Shown piece by piece: positions 26,205-31,032 of a DNA stretch of 64,000 bases (its first letter is position 1; each line of letters opens with the position of its first letter). Origin of the DNA: Escherichia coli (GTDB taxonomy: Bacteria; Pseudomonadota; Gammaproteobacteria; Enterobacterales; Enterobacteriaceae); assembly GCF_003334815.1 (NCBI RefSeq), contig NZ_QOWO01000003.1; one strand, given 5' to 3'. The notes beneath the pieces are model-generated. The model was given only the letters and a program-made list of their open reading frames with translations. It was not told where the DNA came from and made no database searches. Made by a program: the position numbers and the translations under genes.

Positions 26205-27542
26205 TTAATCTTTGCTTATTGGTGCATCTAAGGGATACGGGTTTTTATGTAGCCGGTTGTAATTCAGCGCATACATGGCGGTGATGACCATCAGGGTGAC
26301 AAATGACCACATAACCTCTTTCGCTCCGGACCCCACCACGGCCCAGATGCAGTAGAGGAAGGCAATGGTAGTAACTGCCAGATATGCCGGGCGTGCTTTA
26401 CCAAAGTGACCGTGTCCGAGCAGCAGTAACGCCGCACAGGTGTAAAGATATGGCACCAGTGTAAAGATGACCGAGACGGAAGAAACCAGACCGAACTCTT
26501 TGGTCGCGTTTGGTGAAATGCTGCTGAGCTGGAAGATGGTCATCAAAATACCGACGATAATCAGCCCCGCCACTGGCGTACCCGCTTTATTTACACGGGC
26601 AAAAATCGGTGGGAACAGTCCGTCATCGGCAGCGGCTTTCGCCGTTTGACCCGCCAGCAACGTCCAGCCGCCCAGTGAACCTAAGCAACCCGCAGCTGCG
26701 CAGAAGGAAACAATGGCCCCGGCGGTGTCACCCAACGCCATCCGTGCGGCATCACCGAATGGCGAAGCAGAAACGCGCAGTGCGGCATTAGGGATCATCC
26801 CCATAATCGCGGTGGTAGAAAGTACATAGCAAACGGCGGCAATCAATACCCCACCAATGGTGGCGATAGGGACATTGCGTTTCGGGTTTTTCACCACACC
26901 TGCGGCAACGGAGGCACTTTCCACACCGATGAACGACCACAGCGTAACGTTAAGGGTACTTTGAATTGCACCGAAGGTGCCCAGGCCGCTGACGTTCCAT
27001 GCCGCCATATAGGTTTCACCACGGAACCAGAACCAGCCAAATACGGCAATCCCGACGATGGGGATCAGCGCCAGCACGGTGGCAACTGCCTGCACACGGG
27101 TGATCATTTTCGGACCGACAATGTTCAGCAGGACGAAGATCCACAGCACCACGACGCAGGTGATGGTTAATACCAATGGATCTTTCAGAATCGGGAAGAA
27201 GTAACTTAAATATCCTACGCCAATGACCACCATGGCGATATTGCCGATCCAGCAGGCCAGCCAGTAGAGGACGTTGGTTTGATAACCGAGAAACGGGCCA
27301 AAGCAGCGGCGGGCGTAAGCGTAAGAACCACCAGGACTTGGGTCGAGGAACGACATTTTGGCGTATACCATCGAGAGCCCCAGTGCACCGATAATCGTCA
27401 CCAACCATCCATAAATGGCAATCCCGCCAGTAGAGGCCAGGTTTGCAGGTAACAGAAAAACACCTGACCCCATAATATTCCCCGACACCATCAGGGTGAC
27501 GGGGATTAAGCCCACTTTGTGAGCATCAGCATCCGAAGACAT
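26205..27542 (-). CDS. adiC: arginine:agmatine antiporter (APC family)
   Basis: 445-aa ORF, 12 TM, APC-family features; neighbours adiY/adiA. Confidence 0.92.
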
Positions 27543-27678
27543 AATTAAACTCCTGCGAAGGCGAGCTTCGTGACAATAAATTACGTCATATCATACGCCT
27601 GCATTCGATAGTTGAATTATTATCGACCGGGTTATCGCTGATGCCGTTATTAATATAGCTCTTCGTTAAGGTTAAAAA

Positions 27679-28440
27679 TCAGGCGACAGTGCGTTCTCTG
27701 TGCTGACTAACATAATGCAGCGGCGTCATACCGTAGAAGTCTTTAAAGACAGAAATAAAGTACGACGTACTGTTGTAGCCGCAGGACTGTGATACCTGAG
27801 AGATATTTTTACCGTCCATCATTAATTCATTTACGGCATAACGCATGCGGCAGGTGGTGATTATTTGGCTATAACTGGTGTTTTCGCTTTTCAACTTTTT
27901 CTTTAACAGACTTGGGCTAAGACATAAACAACTGGCTACCATACTAAGATTCCAGTCTTTGTGAATATCGCTTTCAATAATTTGATAAACGCTGTCACTT
28001 ACACAATTACGTAACATATACATCATTAATGAAACGAATTTTTTACTGTCGAGAAAACGGGATAGCACCGTGAATAATAATGCGCGTGTTCGTTCCTTTT
28101 CTGACTCAGTTTCTGCGGGCATCATGCTGTGTTGCGCGGCAACGCGAAAGACGTCTGGCGTCAGGCATGGCAGGGTGAGTATGGGCGTAGCGCTACGTTG
28201 CCATACTGGTATTTGCGAGAGATCTTTATTCAGAAACCGGAGGTAATCTTTGATGATGTCGTGACTAATATGAGCAACCAAAGTGTTGTTAAGAGAGGAG
28301 ACGTCGATAATATTATTTTCACAATTTAATAACGCCATATGGTTAGCTTTAAGGCTAATAGGTTCTTTCCCATTCACCCTTATCCAGACATCTTTTTCAG
28401 TCAATAAAACAATACAAGGTTGGTCGCTGCAAATCCTCAT
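27679..28440 (-). CDS. adiY: AraC-family transcriptional activator of arginine decarboxylase system
   Basis: 253-aa ORF with C-terminal AraC-type HTH (…SQVSQSCGYNSTSYFISVFKDFYGMTP…). Confidence 0.9.
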   Translation of the reverse strand: MRICSDQPCIVLLTEKDVWIRVNGKEPISLKANHMALLNCENNIIDVSSLNNTLVAHISHDIIKDYLRFLNKDLSQIPVWQRSATPILTLPCLTPDVFRVAAQHSMMPAETESEKERTRALLFTVLSRFLDSKKFVSLMMYMLRNCVSDSVYQIIESDIHKDWNLSMVASCLCLSPSLLKKKLKSENTSYSQIITTCRMRYAVNELMMDGKNISQVSQSCGYNSTSYFISVFKDFYGMTPLHYVSQHRERTVA

Positions 28441-28620
28441 ACATGTACTCCTGAGTGCGAATAAAAGACCAGTTCTCGCTAAAGCAAAGCGATACCGGGA
28501 AATGGTTATATAATTGTATGATGAATATAAACATGCATAAAAATAACGAGTTTTACTAATAGTACAAATTTTTATAGTAATTTCTCATGTACATATTTTT
28601 TTACAGGATAAATAACAGGC

Positions 28621-28647
28621 AAAAAAAAGCGCGGGGTGGGCCCGCGC
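28621..28647 (-). terminator. intrinsic terminator downstream of adiA
   Basis: Seen directly: GC-rich hairpin gcgcggg-gtggg-cccgcgc preceded on the plus strand by an A8 run (T-run on the minus strand). Confidence 0.7.
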
Positions 28648-28764
28648 AAAAAGTATGACATTTTTGTTTGCAGCAATTTTTATGAAAACGTTGCCATACT
28701 CAAAAGGCCTAAGGCCAGGCGGCGTAATGTTATTTAAACAATTACGCCTTCAGCGGAATAGTGG

Positions 28765-31032
28765 TTACGCTTTCACGCACATAACGTGGTAAATACCGTC
28801 AATAATTTCAGTCCCTTCAGTTTCGTGTTCAAATCCAGGGAAATGGTGGTCCCAGGATTGCAGCGAGCGTAAATAACTTACTTGCGGACTGTTTTTATCG
28901 CCGAAGTTTTCACCAGACAGCAGCATCGGGATTCCTGGCGGATACGGGATAACTGAGTTTGCCGCGATGCGTCCTGGCAGATTTTCAATGGATACCAGTT
29001 CGACATTGTTGTCGACAATCGCGTTGTACGCTTCACGCGGGGTGACTTCCGCCACCGGCAGGCCGGAATAGGCTTCGTTCAACCGTGCGCCAGGGTTGTT
29101 TTCTTTCAGCCAGGCAAACATGGTGTCACCCAGATCGTGAATCCCCATGTTCGCGTAAGTGTCAGGATATTGTTCAACAAGTTCCGGCATCACCTGCGCC
29201 AGCGGTGTGTTGGCGTCATAGTGGCGTTTGAAGGAGCAAAGGGTGTTAACCAGAGTTCCCCATTTCCCACGGGTTACGCCCATAGAGAACAGGAACATAA
29301 TTTGGAAGTCAGTGGTGCGGGTAGGTACAATGCCGTGGCGACCAAGCCAGGCAGTGACCAGCGCCGCCGGAACACCGGTTTCTTCCAGTTCACCATCTTC
29401 ACCCATTCCCGGAGCAAGGATGCTGACTTTAATCGGGTCGAGCATACTCCAGTTATCCGGAATATCTTTGAAGCCGTGCCAGCTTTCGCCCGGATGCATT
29501 ACCCAGCAGTCCTGAACGGTGGTCAGCAGTTTGGTTGGTGCGTCAGCAAAGTCATAGGTTTTGCCGGTTTGTGGGTCGGTGACGACTTCTTTGTTCCACG
29601 GTTTGAAGAACCAGCTACCGTCAGCGGTGAACTCTTTATATAGCCGCGCCATCGCCTGACGGAAATCAACCGCTTCGTCAATCACTTCCTGTGTCAGTGA
29701 CAGGCCGCTGTTGCCGTCCATCATCGACACCGCCACGTCGTTGGATGCGCAGATGGCATACAGCGGGGAGGTGGTGGCATGCATCATGTAGGCCTGGTTG
29801 AAGCGGGAGAAGTTAATCGCCCCACGACCTTCACGTACATGAATATAAGAAGCCTGTGACAGCGCATTCAGCAGTTTGTGGGTGGAGTGGGTGGCGAAAA
29901 CGGTAGGACCGTTGTGATCGCCAGGTTCGCCGCGCATGGCATAGTGATCGGCATAGATCGGGTTGAAACGTGCATAGCCGTACCAGGCTTCGTCAAAGTG
30001 CAGACGATCGGAGGTTTTTTCCAGCAGATCCTGCGCTTCTTTAGCGTTATAACACACGCCGTCATAGGTGCAGTTGGTCACCACGCAGTAAGACGGTTTT
30101 TGCCCGGCTTTGTCTTTGGTCAGCGGGCTTTCACTGATTTTCTTCTGCAAGGTTTCAGGTTGCATTTCCTGCGGATAGATTGGCCCGATAATGCCGTAGC
30201 GGTTGCGGCTTGGCACCATATAGACCGGTTTCGCGCCTGTCAGCATCAAACCTTGTTCGATGGATTTATGGCAGTTACGGTCAACGACCACGACATCGTT
30301 ATCGGTCATGCAAGCCTGCATGATGGTGCGGTTAGAGCCGGAAGTACCGACGACTACCGACCAGGAGCGATCGGCACCAAATACGCGTGCGGCATATTTT
30401 TCGCTTTCGCCAAATGCGCCAGTATGGTCAAGCAAAGAACCGAGGGAAGTTCGTTCGATGCCCATGTCGGTGCGGAACAGATTTTCACCATAGTAGTCAT
30501 GGTAGAAACGTCCGGCGGGTGTTTTGGTAAAACCAACGCCGCCCTGGTGGCCTGGCGCTGCCCAGGAATATTCATGGATGTCACTATATTTCATCAGCGC
30601 GCTGAACAGTGGCGGCAACAGCTGCTGGCGGTAGCGGGTCATCGCGGCAACGGCGCGTCCGGCGATAAAGTCGGCGGTATCTTCCAGAATCCAGGCGAAT
30701 TCATCGACAAGCTCCAGCAGGTCGCGATCCATTGCGGCGAGGGCTTTTTCCCGATCGCCCAACAGGAAGACCGGCACGTTTTGTTGGCGCTCATGAAGCT
30801 TACCGATCAATTGTCTGACGTTTTGATGTTCGTCCGGATGTTCCATTTGATAGCTGAACATCAGGCAGTCAATGGCTTCGTTTGAAGAGAGAATGGCAAA
30901 ACCATCATCAAAGGAGGTGGATTTAATCACGGTAACATTTTGCTGGCTTAAAGCATCTGCCAGACGCTCAACGGCGTTACCGACCCAGGTGTCTTGATGG
31001 AGAAACTCGCTTTCAACAATTAATACTTTCAT
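28765..31032 (-). CDS. adiA: biodegradative (acid-inducible) arginine decarboxylase, PLP-dependent
   Basis: ORF 28765..31035; start at second ATG (MKVLIVESEFLHQD..., 755 aa); PLP-lysine motif region STHKLLNALSQAS; paralogous to cadA in this window. Confidence 0.93.
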   Translation of the reverse strand: MKVLIVESEFLHQDTWVGNAVERLADALSQQNVTVIKSTSFDDGFAILSSNEAIDCLMFSYQMEHPDEHQNVRQLIGKLHERQQNVPVFLLGDREKALAAMDRDLLELVDEFAWILEDTADFIAGRAVAAMTRYRQQLLPPLFSALMKYSDIHEYSWAAPGHQGGVGFTKTPAGRFYHDYYGENLFRTDMGIERTSLGSLLDHTGAFGESEKYAARVFGADRSWSVVVGTSGSNRTIMQACMTDNDVVVVDRNCHKSIEQGLMLTGAKPVYMVPSRNRYGIIGPIYPQEMQPETLQKKISESPLTKDKAGQKPSYCVVTNCTYDGVCYNAKEAQDLLEKTSDRLHFDEAWYGYARFNPIYADHYAMRGEPGDHNGPTVFATHSTHKLLNALSQASYIHVREGRGAINFSRFNQAYMMHATTSPLYAICASNDVAVSMMDGNSGLSLTQEVIDEAVDFRQAMARLYKEFTADGSWFFKPWNKEVVTDPQTGKTYDFADAPTKLLTTVQDCWVMHPGESWHGFKDIPDNWSMLDPIKVSILAPGMGEDGELEETGVPAALVTAWLGRHGIVPTRTTDFQIMFLFSMGVTRGKWGTLVNTLCSFKRHYDANTPLAQVMPELVEQYPDTYANMGIHDLGDTMFAWLKENNPGARLNEAYSGLPVAEVTPREAYNAIVDNNVELVSIENLPGRIAANSVIPYPPGIPMLLSGENFGDKNSPQVSYLRSLQSWDHHFPGFEHETEGTEIIDGIYHVMCVKA

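Follow-up and report, generated by a model that had tools for sequence, protein, structure and literature searches.

Two amino-acid decarboxylase-based acid-resistance systems of Escherichia coli, the arginine-dependent system AR3 (adiA-adiY-adiC) and the lysine-dependent system AR4 (cadC-cadBA), lie near each other in the stretch of DNA analyzed here, 64,000 nucleotides of contig NZ_QOWO01000003.1 (RefSeq assembly GCF_003334815.1), hereafter called the window. Both systems, their paralogy, their regulators and the structures 2VYC, 3N75 and 3NCY are already known and belong to textbook E. coli biology. For AR3, the genes, their order and their sequence in the window are identical to those of K-12, and for AR4 the identity includes the Cad1 operator; nothing differs in either system. 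Usually omitted from descriptions of the Cad system are dtpC and, in many genomes, lysU, which belong to the travelling cad block.

A third E. coli module, speF-potE at 0.72 Mb, encodes an inducible ornithine decarboxylase with a putrescine/ornithine antiporter; it draws on the same decarboxylase and antiporter families and follows the same logic as adi and cad, but is more distant from them (32–33% identity, 198–339 bits) and is controlled by the leader peptide speFL instead of a dedicated activator. The accepted clustered acid-stress region is the gad acid fitness island (gadA-gadXW-mdtEF-gadE-hdeABD), which is contiguous and has shared regulators. Although adi and cad resemble it in being centred on decarboxylase-based acid resistance, they stand 14 genes apart and have no regulator in common, and their linkage is confined to E. 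coli and its closest relatives. The constitutive lysine decarboxylase gene ldcC (accA-ldcC-yaeR-tilS) encodes a protein 69% identical to CadA; unlike cadA, it has neither antiporter nor regulator beside it in E. coli, and in Serratia and related genera it occupies one locus with cadCBA-dtpC. Its derivation from ldcI through duplication in Enterobacteriaceae has been proposed by Carriel et al. (2018).

The biochemical mechanism and the regulation of both modules are taken from the literature. In each, a cytoplasmic decarboxylase dependent on pyridoxal 5'-phosphate (PLP) uses one proton per substrate molecule, AdiA converting arginine to agmatine and CadA lysine to cadaverine. The cognate antiporter, AdiC or CadB, then releases the amine product from the cell as it takes up new substrate, and in sum both the cytoplasmic and the external pH rise. 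The soluble AraC-type protein AdiY turns on adiA and adiC in strong acid under anaerobic conditions, and the membrane-anchored ToxR-type protein CadC turns on cadBA in mild acid with lysine.

Our analysis indicates that the two modules are very probably ancient paralogues which move as separate cassettes and have come to lie near each other incidentally in E. coli, and that the window holds no conserved acid-stress region. The decarboxylase and antiporter pairs would descend from an ancient duplication, the regulators having been recruited independently, and cad appears to travel as a cadCBA-dtpC block, often with lysU, found beside the tRNA gene pheU in our sample only in E. coli and one other Escherichia species.

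Identity, paralogy and age of the two modules

The 10 kb around adi and the 21 kb around cad were 100% identical to E. coli K-12 genomes, including MG1655, and gene names and limits were taken from the RefSeq annotation of identical E. coli DNA. Both modules are encoded on the minus strand: adiC (26205–27542), adiY (27679–28440) and adiA (28765–31032), followed by cadA (ldcI; 46982–49129), cadB (49209–50543) and cadC (50908–52446). These limits coincide exactly with those that the original prediction, made from the sequence alone, had given for adiCYA (26205–31032) and cadCBA (46982–52446). Its statement that the modules lie within 20 kb is accurate for the adiA-cadA gap of 15,950 bp; together the modules span 26.2 kb. 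The mechanically called open reading frames (ORFs) of both decarboxylases exceed the annotated genes (cadA, 728 vs 715 residues; adiA, 756 vs 755).

AdiA, the biodegradative (acid-inducible) arginine decarboxylase and a wing-domain fold-type I PLP enzyme, passed the NCBIfam model NF011603 (1704.7 bits; cutoff 1167) and matched PDB entry 2VYC (2VYC_A) over its full length (residues 1–755, 1784.6 bits). The Pfam domains PF03709, PF01276 and PF03711 (OKR_DC_1_N, OKR_DC_1 and OKR_DC_1_C) are on record for its cluster representative and for the Salmonella orthologue. CadA, the inducible lysine decarboxylase, passed NF011929 (1628.5 bits; cutoff 1056; residues 1–714); this full-length match to a lysine decarboxylase model and an alignment with AdiA that runs across all domains suggest for CadA, too, a three-domain architecture with an N-terminal wing, a PLP core and a C-terminal domain. 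The LdcI (CadA) structures 3N75 and 5FKX were among the paralogue matches in the PDB search with AdiA. The arginine/agmatine antiporter AdiC, a member of the basic amino acid/polyamine antiporter (APA) family of the APC superfamily, passed its own equivalog model NF007929 (892 bits; cutoff 574) and scored under the cutoff of the subfamily model TIGR00905 (353 vs 409 bits). The lysine/cadaverine antiporter CadB passed both NF007754 (920 bits; cutoff 585) and TIGR00905 (488.6 bits; cutoff 409), and its closest PDB matches were solved AdiC structures (3NCY, 3L1L and others). The exchange of substrate for product by AdiC and CadB is known from the literature and from the solved AdiC structures.

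The regulators are of different descent. AdiY, described as the AraC-family activator of adiA and adiC, matched AraC-family NCBIfam models only, over residues ∼108–250 and in each case under the model's own cutoff; its Salmonella orthologue carries the Pfam domains HTH_18 and HTH_AraC. Its identification as GadX was rejected, the best model match reaching 154 bits against an equivalog cutoff of 500. CadC, described as a ToxR-like, membrane-integrated sensor of pH and lysine and activator of cadBA, passed NF007540 (752.6 bits; cutoff 400). Its residues ∼1–107 resemble OmpR/PhoB winged-helix DNA-binding domains, and a single strongly hydrophobic segment, the expected transmembrane helix, occupies residues ∼155–183 of 512. 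Comparison of AdiY with CadC revealed no significant similarity (E = 0.11 over 24 residues), in agreement with the predicted pairing of each module with a dedicated regulator of a different family. Both regulator genes have a low GC content (adiY 0.413, cadC 0.420) relative to the structural genes (0.48–0.54) and to the window (0.511).

The enzymes and transporters, in contrast to the regulators, align over nearly their whole length. AdiA and CadA share 36% identity over 740 aligned positions (E = 2e-163) and AdiC and CadB 38% over 447 (E = 3e-100). Global alignment scores were 1186 for the decarboxylases and 862 for the antiporters, and shuffled partners reached at most −128 and −19, respectively. 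The motif STHKLL.A.SQAS, already noticed in the original prediction, surrounds the PLP lysine of both enzymes (AdiA 383 STHKLLNALSQAS; CadA 364 STHKLLAAFSQAS); its STHK element corresponds to residues 383–386 of AdiA and 364–367 of CadA, and LdcC has STHKML. The two decarboxylases are confirmed by sequence as paralogues, and so are the two antiporters, as had been proposed. Identity at background level, named in advance as a sign of convergence, was not observed. A likeness arising merely from the shared decarboxylation of basic amino acids is contradicted by the full-length alignments, the common Pfam and NCBIfam families, the PLP-lysine motif and the negative scores of the shuffled partners, which together leave a convergent origin no credibility.

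The age of the duplication was estimated by comparison with other E. coli family members, taken from NC_000913.3, and with orthologues. AdiA scored 478 bits against CadA and 339–360 against SpeF and SpeC; for the two decarboxylases together, the Adi–Cad score of 478 bits compares with 311–360 to SpeF and SpeC. Antiporter scores were 295 bits for AdiC–CadB, 254 for AdiC–PotE and 198 for CadB–PotE. Within E. coli, Adi and Cad are nearer to each other than to the ornithine module in enzyme and transporter alike. The closer relation of the enzymes agrees with the report that Ldc and Adc are nearer to each other than to Odc, in which the branching was left unresolved (Carriel et al. 2018). The AdiA orthologue of Salmonella is 93% identical to the E. 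coli protein, that of Aeromonas 78% and that of Shewanella 68%; for CadA, identity is 92–95% with the orthologues of Salmonella and Klebsiella and 74–76% with those of Vibrio and Aeromonas. Because the paralogues are 36–38% identical and orthologues from other orders 68–78%, the duplication appears far older than Enterobacteriaceae, and judging from these sequences it took place before Enterobacterales parted from Aeromonadales and Vibrionales.

The same identities speak against local (tandem or segmental) duplication, in which a module was copied in place and then diverged, so that the proximity would be historical. Homology of both component pairs is what such an event would leave, and within E. 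coli the adi and cad components are each other's nearest non-recent paralogues; one Aeromonas genome moreover has adiC upstream of adiA, as cadB is upstream of cadA. However, proximity of adi and cad was not found in any older lineage sampled, and the modules differ in regulators and in gene order (cadC, cadB, cadA vs adiA, adiY, adiC), and thus lack the common order and homologous regulators by which en-bloc duplicates would be recognized. Besides the adiC-adiA order of the Aeromonas genome, we found adiA-adiC without adiY in Xenorhabdus and adiA alone in Providencia. The local duplication that is visible is instead that of cadA and ldcC at accA-tilS, as in the order accA-ldcC-yaeR-cadCBA-dtpC-tilS of Serratia. 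We give duplication in place next to no credence.

Chromosomal contexts and the proximity of adi and cad

In Salmonella, the adi region is collinear with the window (dcuS-dcuR-dcuB-fumB-melB-melA-melR-adiA-adiY-adiC-eptA-basR-basS-pmrR-proP-yjdM-yjdN). Past dcuS, however, a dms-like operon follows and not yjdIJ-ghoST-lysU-dtpC-cad; in Salmonella, cadCBA-dtpC is flanked by csiE-hcaT-glyA-hmpA and glrR-qseG-glrK-purL, a context that puts it roughly half a genome from adi. The adi module therefore appears to have stood between eptA (24458–26101, minus strand) and melR (31231–32139, minus strand) since before the Escherichia–Salmonella split. In the same synteny comparison, which the original prediction had proposed, cad was found at pheU only in E. 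coli and one other Escherichia species.

Further afield, adi occurs at other places with other composition in Xenorhabdus, Providencia and Aeromonas and also in Kluyvera cryocrescens, Kosakonia and Enterobacteriaceae strain RIT691. The last three carry it at three other sites, with hdeA-like and hdeD-like (DUF308) genes interspersed in the module or on its flanks and with a GerE-type regulator (loci L086, 12390–17158; L087, 12316–15933; L088, 12495–15132). These non-Escherichia modules, which share hde-like genes with the gad island, form a more convincing compact acid island than the E. coli window.

To define the contexts of cad, one genome per species was searched with CadA, yielding 79 loci with 10-kb flanks whose neighbours were classified by tblastn with the window proteins. 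No adi gene was present within 10 kb of cad in any of the surveyed CadA loci. The frame that encloses cad in the window, yjdC/pheU...lysU-ghoST-dcuSR, was found in only two of the 79 loci, those of E. coli and one other Escherichia species; none of the 76 non-Escherichia CadA/LdcC loci has it, and neither does Escherichia albertii. The pheU tRNA gene is also present at the E. coli-type locus L034. In E. albertii NBRC 107761 (L007, 13211–19596), cadCBA-dtpC-lysU is followed by ligB-gmk-spoT-trmH and not by ghoST-yjdJI-dcuSR, and upstream of cadC there are island-like ORFs, including a helicase-like protein, without pheU. Two readings fit this layout: a rearrangement broke the chromosome directly behind lysU, or the block was inserted at different sites in different members of the genus.

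The remaining loci place cad at unrelated positions. Ten loci, from Klebsiella, Raoultella, Buttiauxella and Pseudescherichia-type genomes, carry cadCBA-dtpC-lysU at other sites, which in K. pneumoniae is flanked by fimbrial and lpxL-like genes on one side and iol genes on the other; 21 carry cadCBA-dtpC without lysU. Nineteen lie inside accA...tilS, from Serratia, Hafnia, Edwardsiella, Shimwellia, Plesiomonas and Aeromonas (L028–L033, L046, L049–L055, L058, L071, L075, L081 and L084). The order there is accA-ldcC-yaeR-cadC-cadB-cadA-dtpC-tilS in Serratia, the same without ldcC in Hafnia, Edwardsiella, Shimwellia and Plesiomonas, and accA-cadB-cadA in Aeromonas; E. coli has ldcC alone at accA-tilS and no cad. 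The older home of cad is thus likely to be accA-tilS, where ldcC remains in E. coli, and accA-tilS appears to be the place where the published duplication of ldcI to ldcC occurred. In a separate arrangement, seen in Edwardsiella anguillarum (L057) and Edwardsiella ictaluri (L059), speF-potE is followed by a cadA-like decarboxylase gene (83–84% identity to CadA) without cadB; this cluster recalls the three-component ornithine/lysine system described in Lactobacillus.

These contexts bear directly on the regional acid-stress neighbourhood that the original prediction had proposed, in which adi, cad, eptA and lysU are held together by selection for co-regulation or co-inheritance. Several observations favour it: the spacing of adi and cad is below random expectation (p ∼0.007 to 0.07, depending on the number of loci counted), the arrangement is nearly fixed in E. 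coli, lysU and dtpC accompany cad across genera, and dtpC, yjdI and yjdJ rise after acid shift (PMC2270276). Against these stands the synteny comparison: the modules are not linked in Salmonella, Klebsiella, E. albertii or any other CadA locus beyond E. coli and one other Escherichia species, and near-fixation in a single species is expected from common descent. Twelve of the 14 genes between the modules have no relation to acid resistance; apart from the cad-associated lysU and dtpC, they serve melibiose use and anaerobic fumarate respiration or encode a toxin–antitoxin pair. As for function, Adi and Cad have different inducing pH and different regulators and are activated in largely exclusive subpopulations; they have no cis-regulation in common, with no CadC site at adi, and are coupled only indirectly, through the effect of CadA on cytoplasmic pH (Brameyer et al. 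2022). The stress genes named as flanks fared unequally. Whereas lysU is linked to cad across genera, nothing that we found ties eptA to adi in function; eptA has only its conserved position next to adiC in Salmonella. Neither linkage across genera nor contiguity with shared regulation, the marks of an acid island, was found here, and we regard a selected neighbourhood as very improbable.

Separately mobile, incidentally adjacent cassettes remain by far the best account, and four points weigh against it. First, the probability that a gap of 16 kb arises by chance is ∼0.007 if this pair alone is considered, 0.02 if three OKR-type modules are and 0.07 with five decarboxylase loci; the small distance is suggestive but post hoc, and weak selection for linkage in E. 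coli is conceivable. Second, the arrangement is near-universal in E. coli: at ≥80% coverage, the adi region was present in 5388 of 5426 genomes, dtpC-cadABC in 5195 and the 15.9-kb spacer in 4665; for dtpC-cadABC, 147 genomes gave no match whatever. Common descent alone would give such near-fixation. Third, the relocation history is a parsimony reading of 10-kb-flank contexts, not a reconciled phylogeny. Fourth, in a neighbour-joining tree of the antiporters (118 representatives at 50% identity and anchors, 122 sequences in all), the AdiC and CadB clades were sisters at 42% bootstrap, with 67% for merely excluding PotE. Because this sister support is weak, co-duplication of decarboxylase and antiporter as one unit is plausible but unproven. 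A histidine/histamine antiporter representative (P0131) grouped with the PotE side of the tree, although AdiC scores highly on the corresponding NCBIfam model.

The cad block, pheU and a Cad1-like sequence

What is conserved around cad is the unit cadCBA-dtpC, to which lysU is often joined. The most constant companion of cadCBA is dtpC (yjdL; 45466–46923, minus strand), which encodes a di/tripeptide permease of the POT family and is the next gene downstream of cadA in ∼50 of the 55 loci with cadC, cadB and cadA, whatever the chromosomal site; yjdL is acid-induced along with cadB and cadA (PMC2270276). The inducible lysyl-tRNA synthetase gene lysU (43712–45229, minus strand; labelled lysS by the NCBI annotation pipeline, PGAP) comes after cadCBA-dtpC in 13 of the 79 CadA loci. 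LysU is reported to be induced at low pH and to be less cadaverine-sensitive than LysS (cited in PMC5078493). Because lysU follows the block in several genera (Escherichia, Klebsiella, Raoultella, Buttiauxella and Pseudescherichia) at unrelated sites, its association is real and belongs to cad, not to a region.

In the window, the block is bounded on the yjdC/dsbD side by pheU, the gene for tRNA-Phe(GAA) (53063–53138, minus strand; ARAGORN and Rfam). The ghoS/ghoT type V toxin–antitoxin pair (43096–43593, plus strand) stands between the dcuSR-yjdIJ backbone and lysU, exactly where the cad-associated block has its inner edge; only the two Escherichia-type loci contain the pair. Between cadC and pheU, PGAP annotates a decayed integrase pseudogene fragment (52706–52865, minus strand), which is frameshifted, incomplete and without an N-terminus, and whose translation contains stops; it lies immediately 3' of pheU, facing cadC. 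The 616-bp cadC-pheU spacer has a GC content of 0.396 and was present in 5219 of 5426 E. coli genomes at ≥80% coverage. Most E. coli genomes hold a second place similar to this spacer.

An integrase fragment adjoining the 3' side of a tRNA gene raises the possibility that the cad block, from cadC to lysU, arrived at pheU as cargo of an integrase-bearing genomic island that has since decayed. The AT-richness of the spacer and of cadC (GC 0.40–0.42 vs 0.51 for the window), the occurrence of cad here only in E. coli and one other Escherichia species, and further insertions at pheU in other strains, such as the RelE/ParD genes of strain 2452, would fit such an arrival. However, no second copy of the pheU 3' end that could serve as an att-like direct repeat was present in the window at up to three mismatches, and no convincing direct repeat flanks the block: a search over 42800–53300 returned seven short two-copy families, roughly the chance level, one of which (D2) is the Cad1-like sequence described below. 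The GC contents of cadA, cadB and dtpC are ordinary (0.48–0.51), the AT-richness of cadC would be natural for an H-NS-silenced regulator gene, and the integrase scar may stem from an unrelated island. A literature search for pheU together with cadA returned nothing relevant. We consider arrival on an island possible but unlikely.

In strain 2452 (L001, 48607–49801), RelE/ParD toxin–antitoxin genes are located past the integrase fragment, in the place occupied by pheU and yjdC in K-12; this suggests an island at pheU in that strain.

Cad1, the published CadC-binding 41-mer of the cadBA promoter, is located at 50728–50768 on the minus strand and is identical to 5'-TTGTAAACATTAAATGTTTATCTTTTCATGATATCAACTTG-3'; it corresponds to −153 to −113 of PcadBA (PMC5430869). 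The repeat search paired its 3' 28 nucleotides (50728–50755) with 45349–45376, ∼120–150 bp upstream of lysU and part of a Cad1-like sequence in the dtpC-lysU intergenic region (45349–45390, minus strand; ∼120–160 bp upstream of the lysU start). The two match at 23 of 28 positions, with TGATATCAACTTG identical; the lysU-side sequence, TTTAAACCATTTTGATGGTTATTTATTAGTGATATCAACTTG, has the whole Cad1C 13-mer in common with Cad1 and keeps a TTAxxxxT half-site. With the Cad1 28-mer as query, it was the only other site in the window within eight mismatches, and none of 300 block-shuffled windows contained a match at five mismatches or fewer. The box is kept in E. coli, one other Escherichia species and E. 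albertii. Upstream of lysU in Klebsiella, Raoultella, Buttiauxella and Pseudescherichia, no such box was found within nine substitutions; in Pseudescherichia the dtpC-lysU gap is only ∼27 nucleotides. The box is thus Escherichia-specific, and its conservation therefore gives no evidence of function. When the site in the cadBA promoter is deleted, 81% of cells no longer form CadC clusters, which counts against a role of the lysU box, as does the fact that the Jung laboratory has reported no second CadC site (Brameyer et al. 2022). The box could be a site of weak CadC binding, a shared AT-rich element of the Lrp/H-NS type, or the remnant of a promoter duplication.

A more far-reaching proposal can be made. 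The functional and evolutionary cad unit would be, in place of cadCBA, a relocatable five-gene lysine/cadaverine cassette, cadC-cadB-cadA-dtpC-lysU, ancestral at accA-tilS, beside which ldcC arose; in Escherichia, lysU would have acquired or retained a Cad1-like operator, so that CadC or another Cad1C binder tunes the cadaverine-tolerant LysU. We hold this to be rather improbable. If it were true, a LysU tuned by CadC would contradict the current view of a single chromosomal CadC target.

Further features of the window and meaning of the arrangement

From melR to lysU, the window contains melA, melB, yjdF, fumB, dcuB, dcuR, dcuS, yjdI, yjdJ, ghoS and ghoT, in that order; past pheU follow yjdC, dsbD, cutA, dcuA and aspA. 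At the Rfam gathering threshold, pheU was the only match in or between the modules. Downstream of adiA, the segment 28620–28764 (minus strand) is the adiA 3' untranslated region and contains a strong intrinsic terminator, GCGCGGGCCCACCCCGCGC and then a run of T. It corresponds to the region of AdiZ, a small RNA processed by RNase E from the adiA 3' untranslated region in Salmonella and E. coli (bioRxiv 10.1101/2025.06.06.658255); no Rfam match was obtained for it at the gathering threshold. Elsewhere in the window, there are four matches to naRNA4, which is derived from repetitive extragenic palindromic (REP) elements, three of them spaced 100 bp apart in tandem between yjdM and crfC and the fourth in the phn-proP region, and a match to STnc630 that overlaps the small ORF pmrR downstream of proP (naRNA4 and STnc630 matches together: 14060–14140, plus strand; 16616–16892, minus strand; 22558–22723, plus strand). 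In strain 2452, which is otherwise identical, phnD (L001, 9960–10976) contains an internal stop and carries a pseudogene annotation.

Taken together, two paralogous acid-resistance modules so near each other tempt one to infer that the region has a common function or that one module was copied on the spot; neither inference holds here. Arguments from co-location call for an outgroup synteny test before weight is given to them. Of specialist interest are the mobility and extent of the cad block, the accA-tilS site that it has in common with ldcC in basal Enterobacterales and Aeromonas, and the Cad1-like box upstream of lysU.

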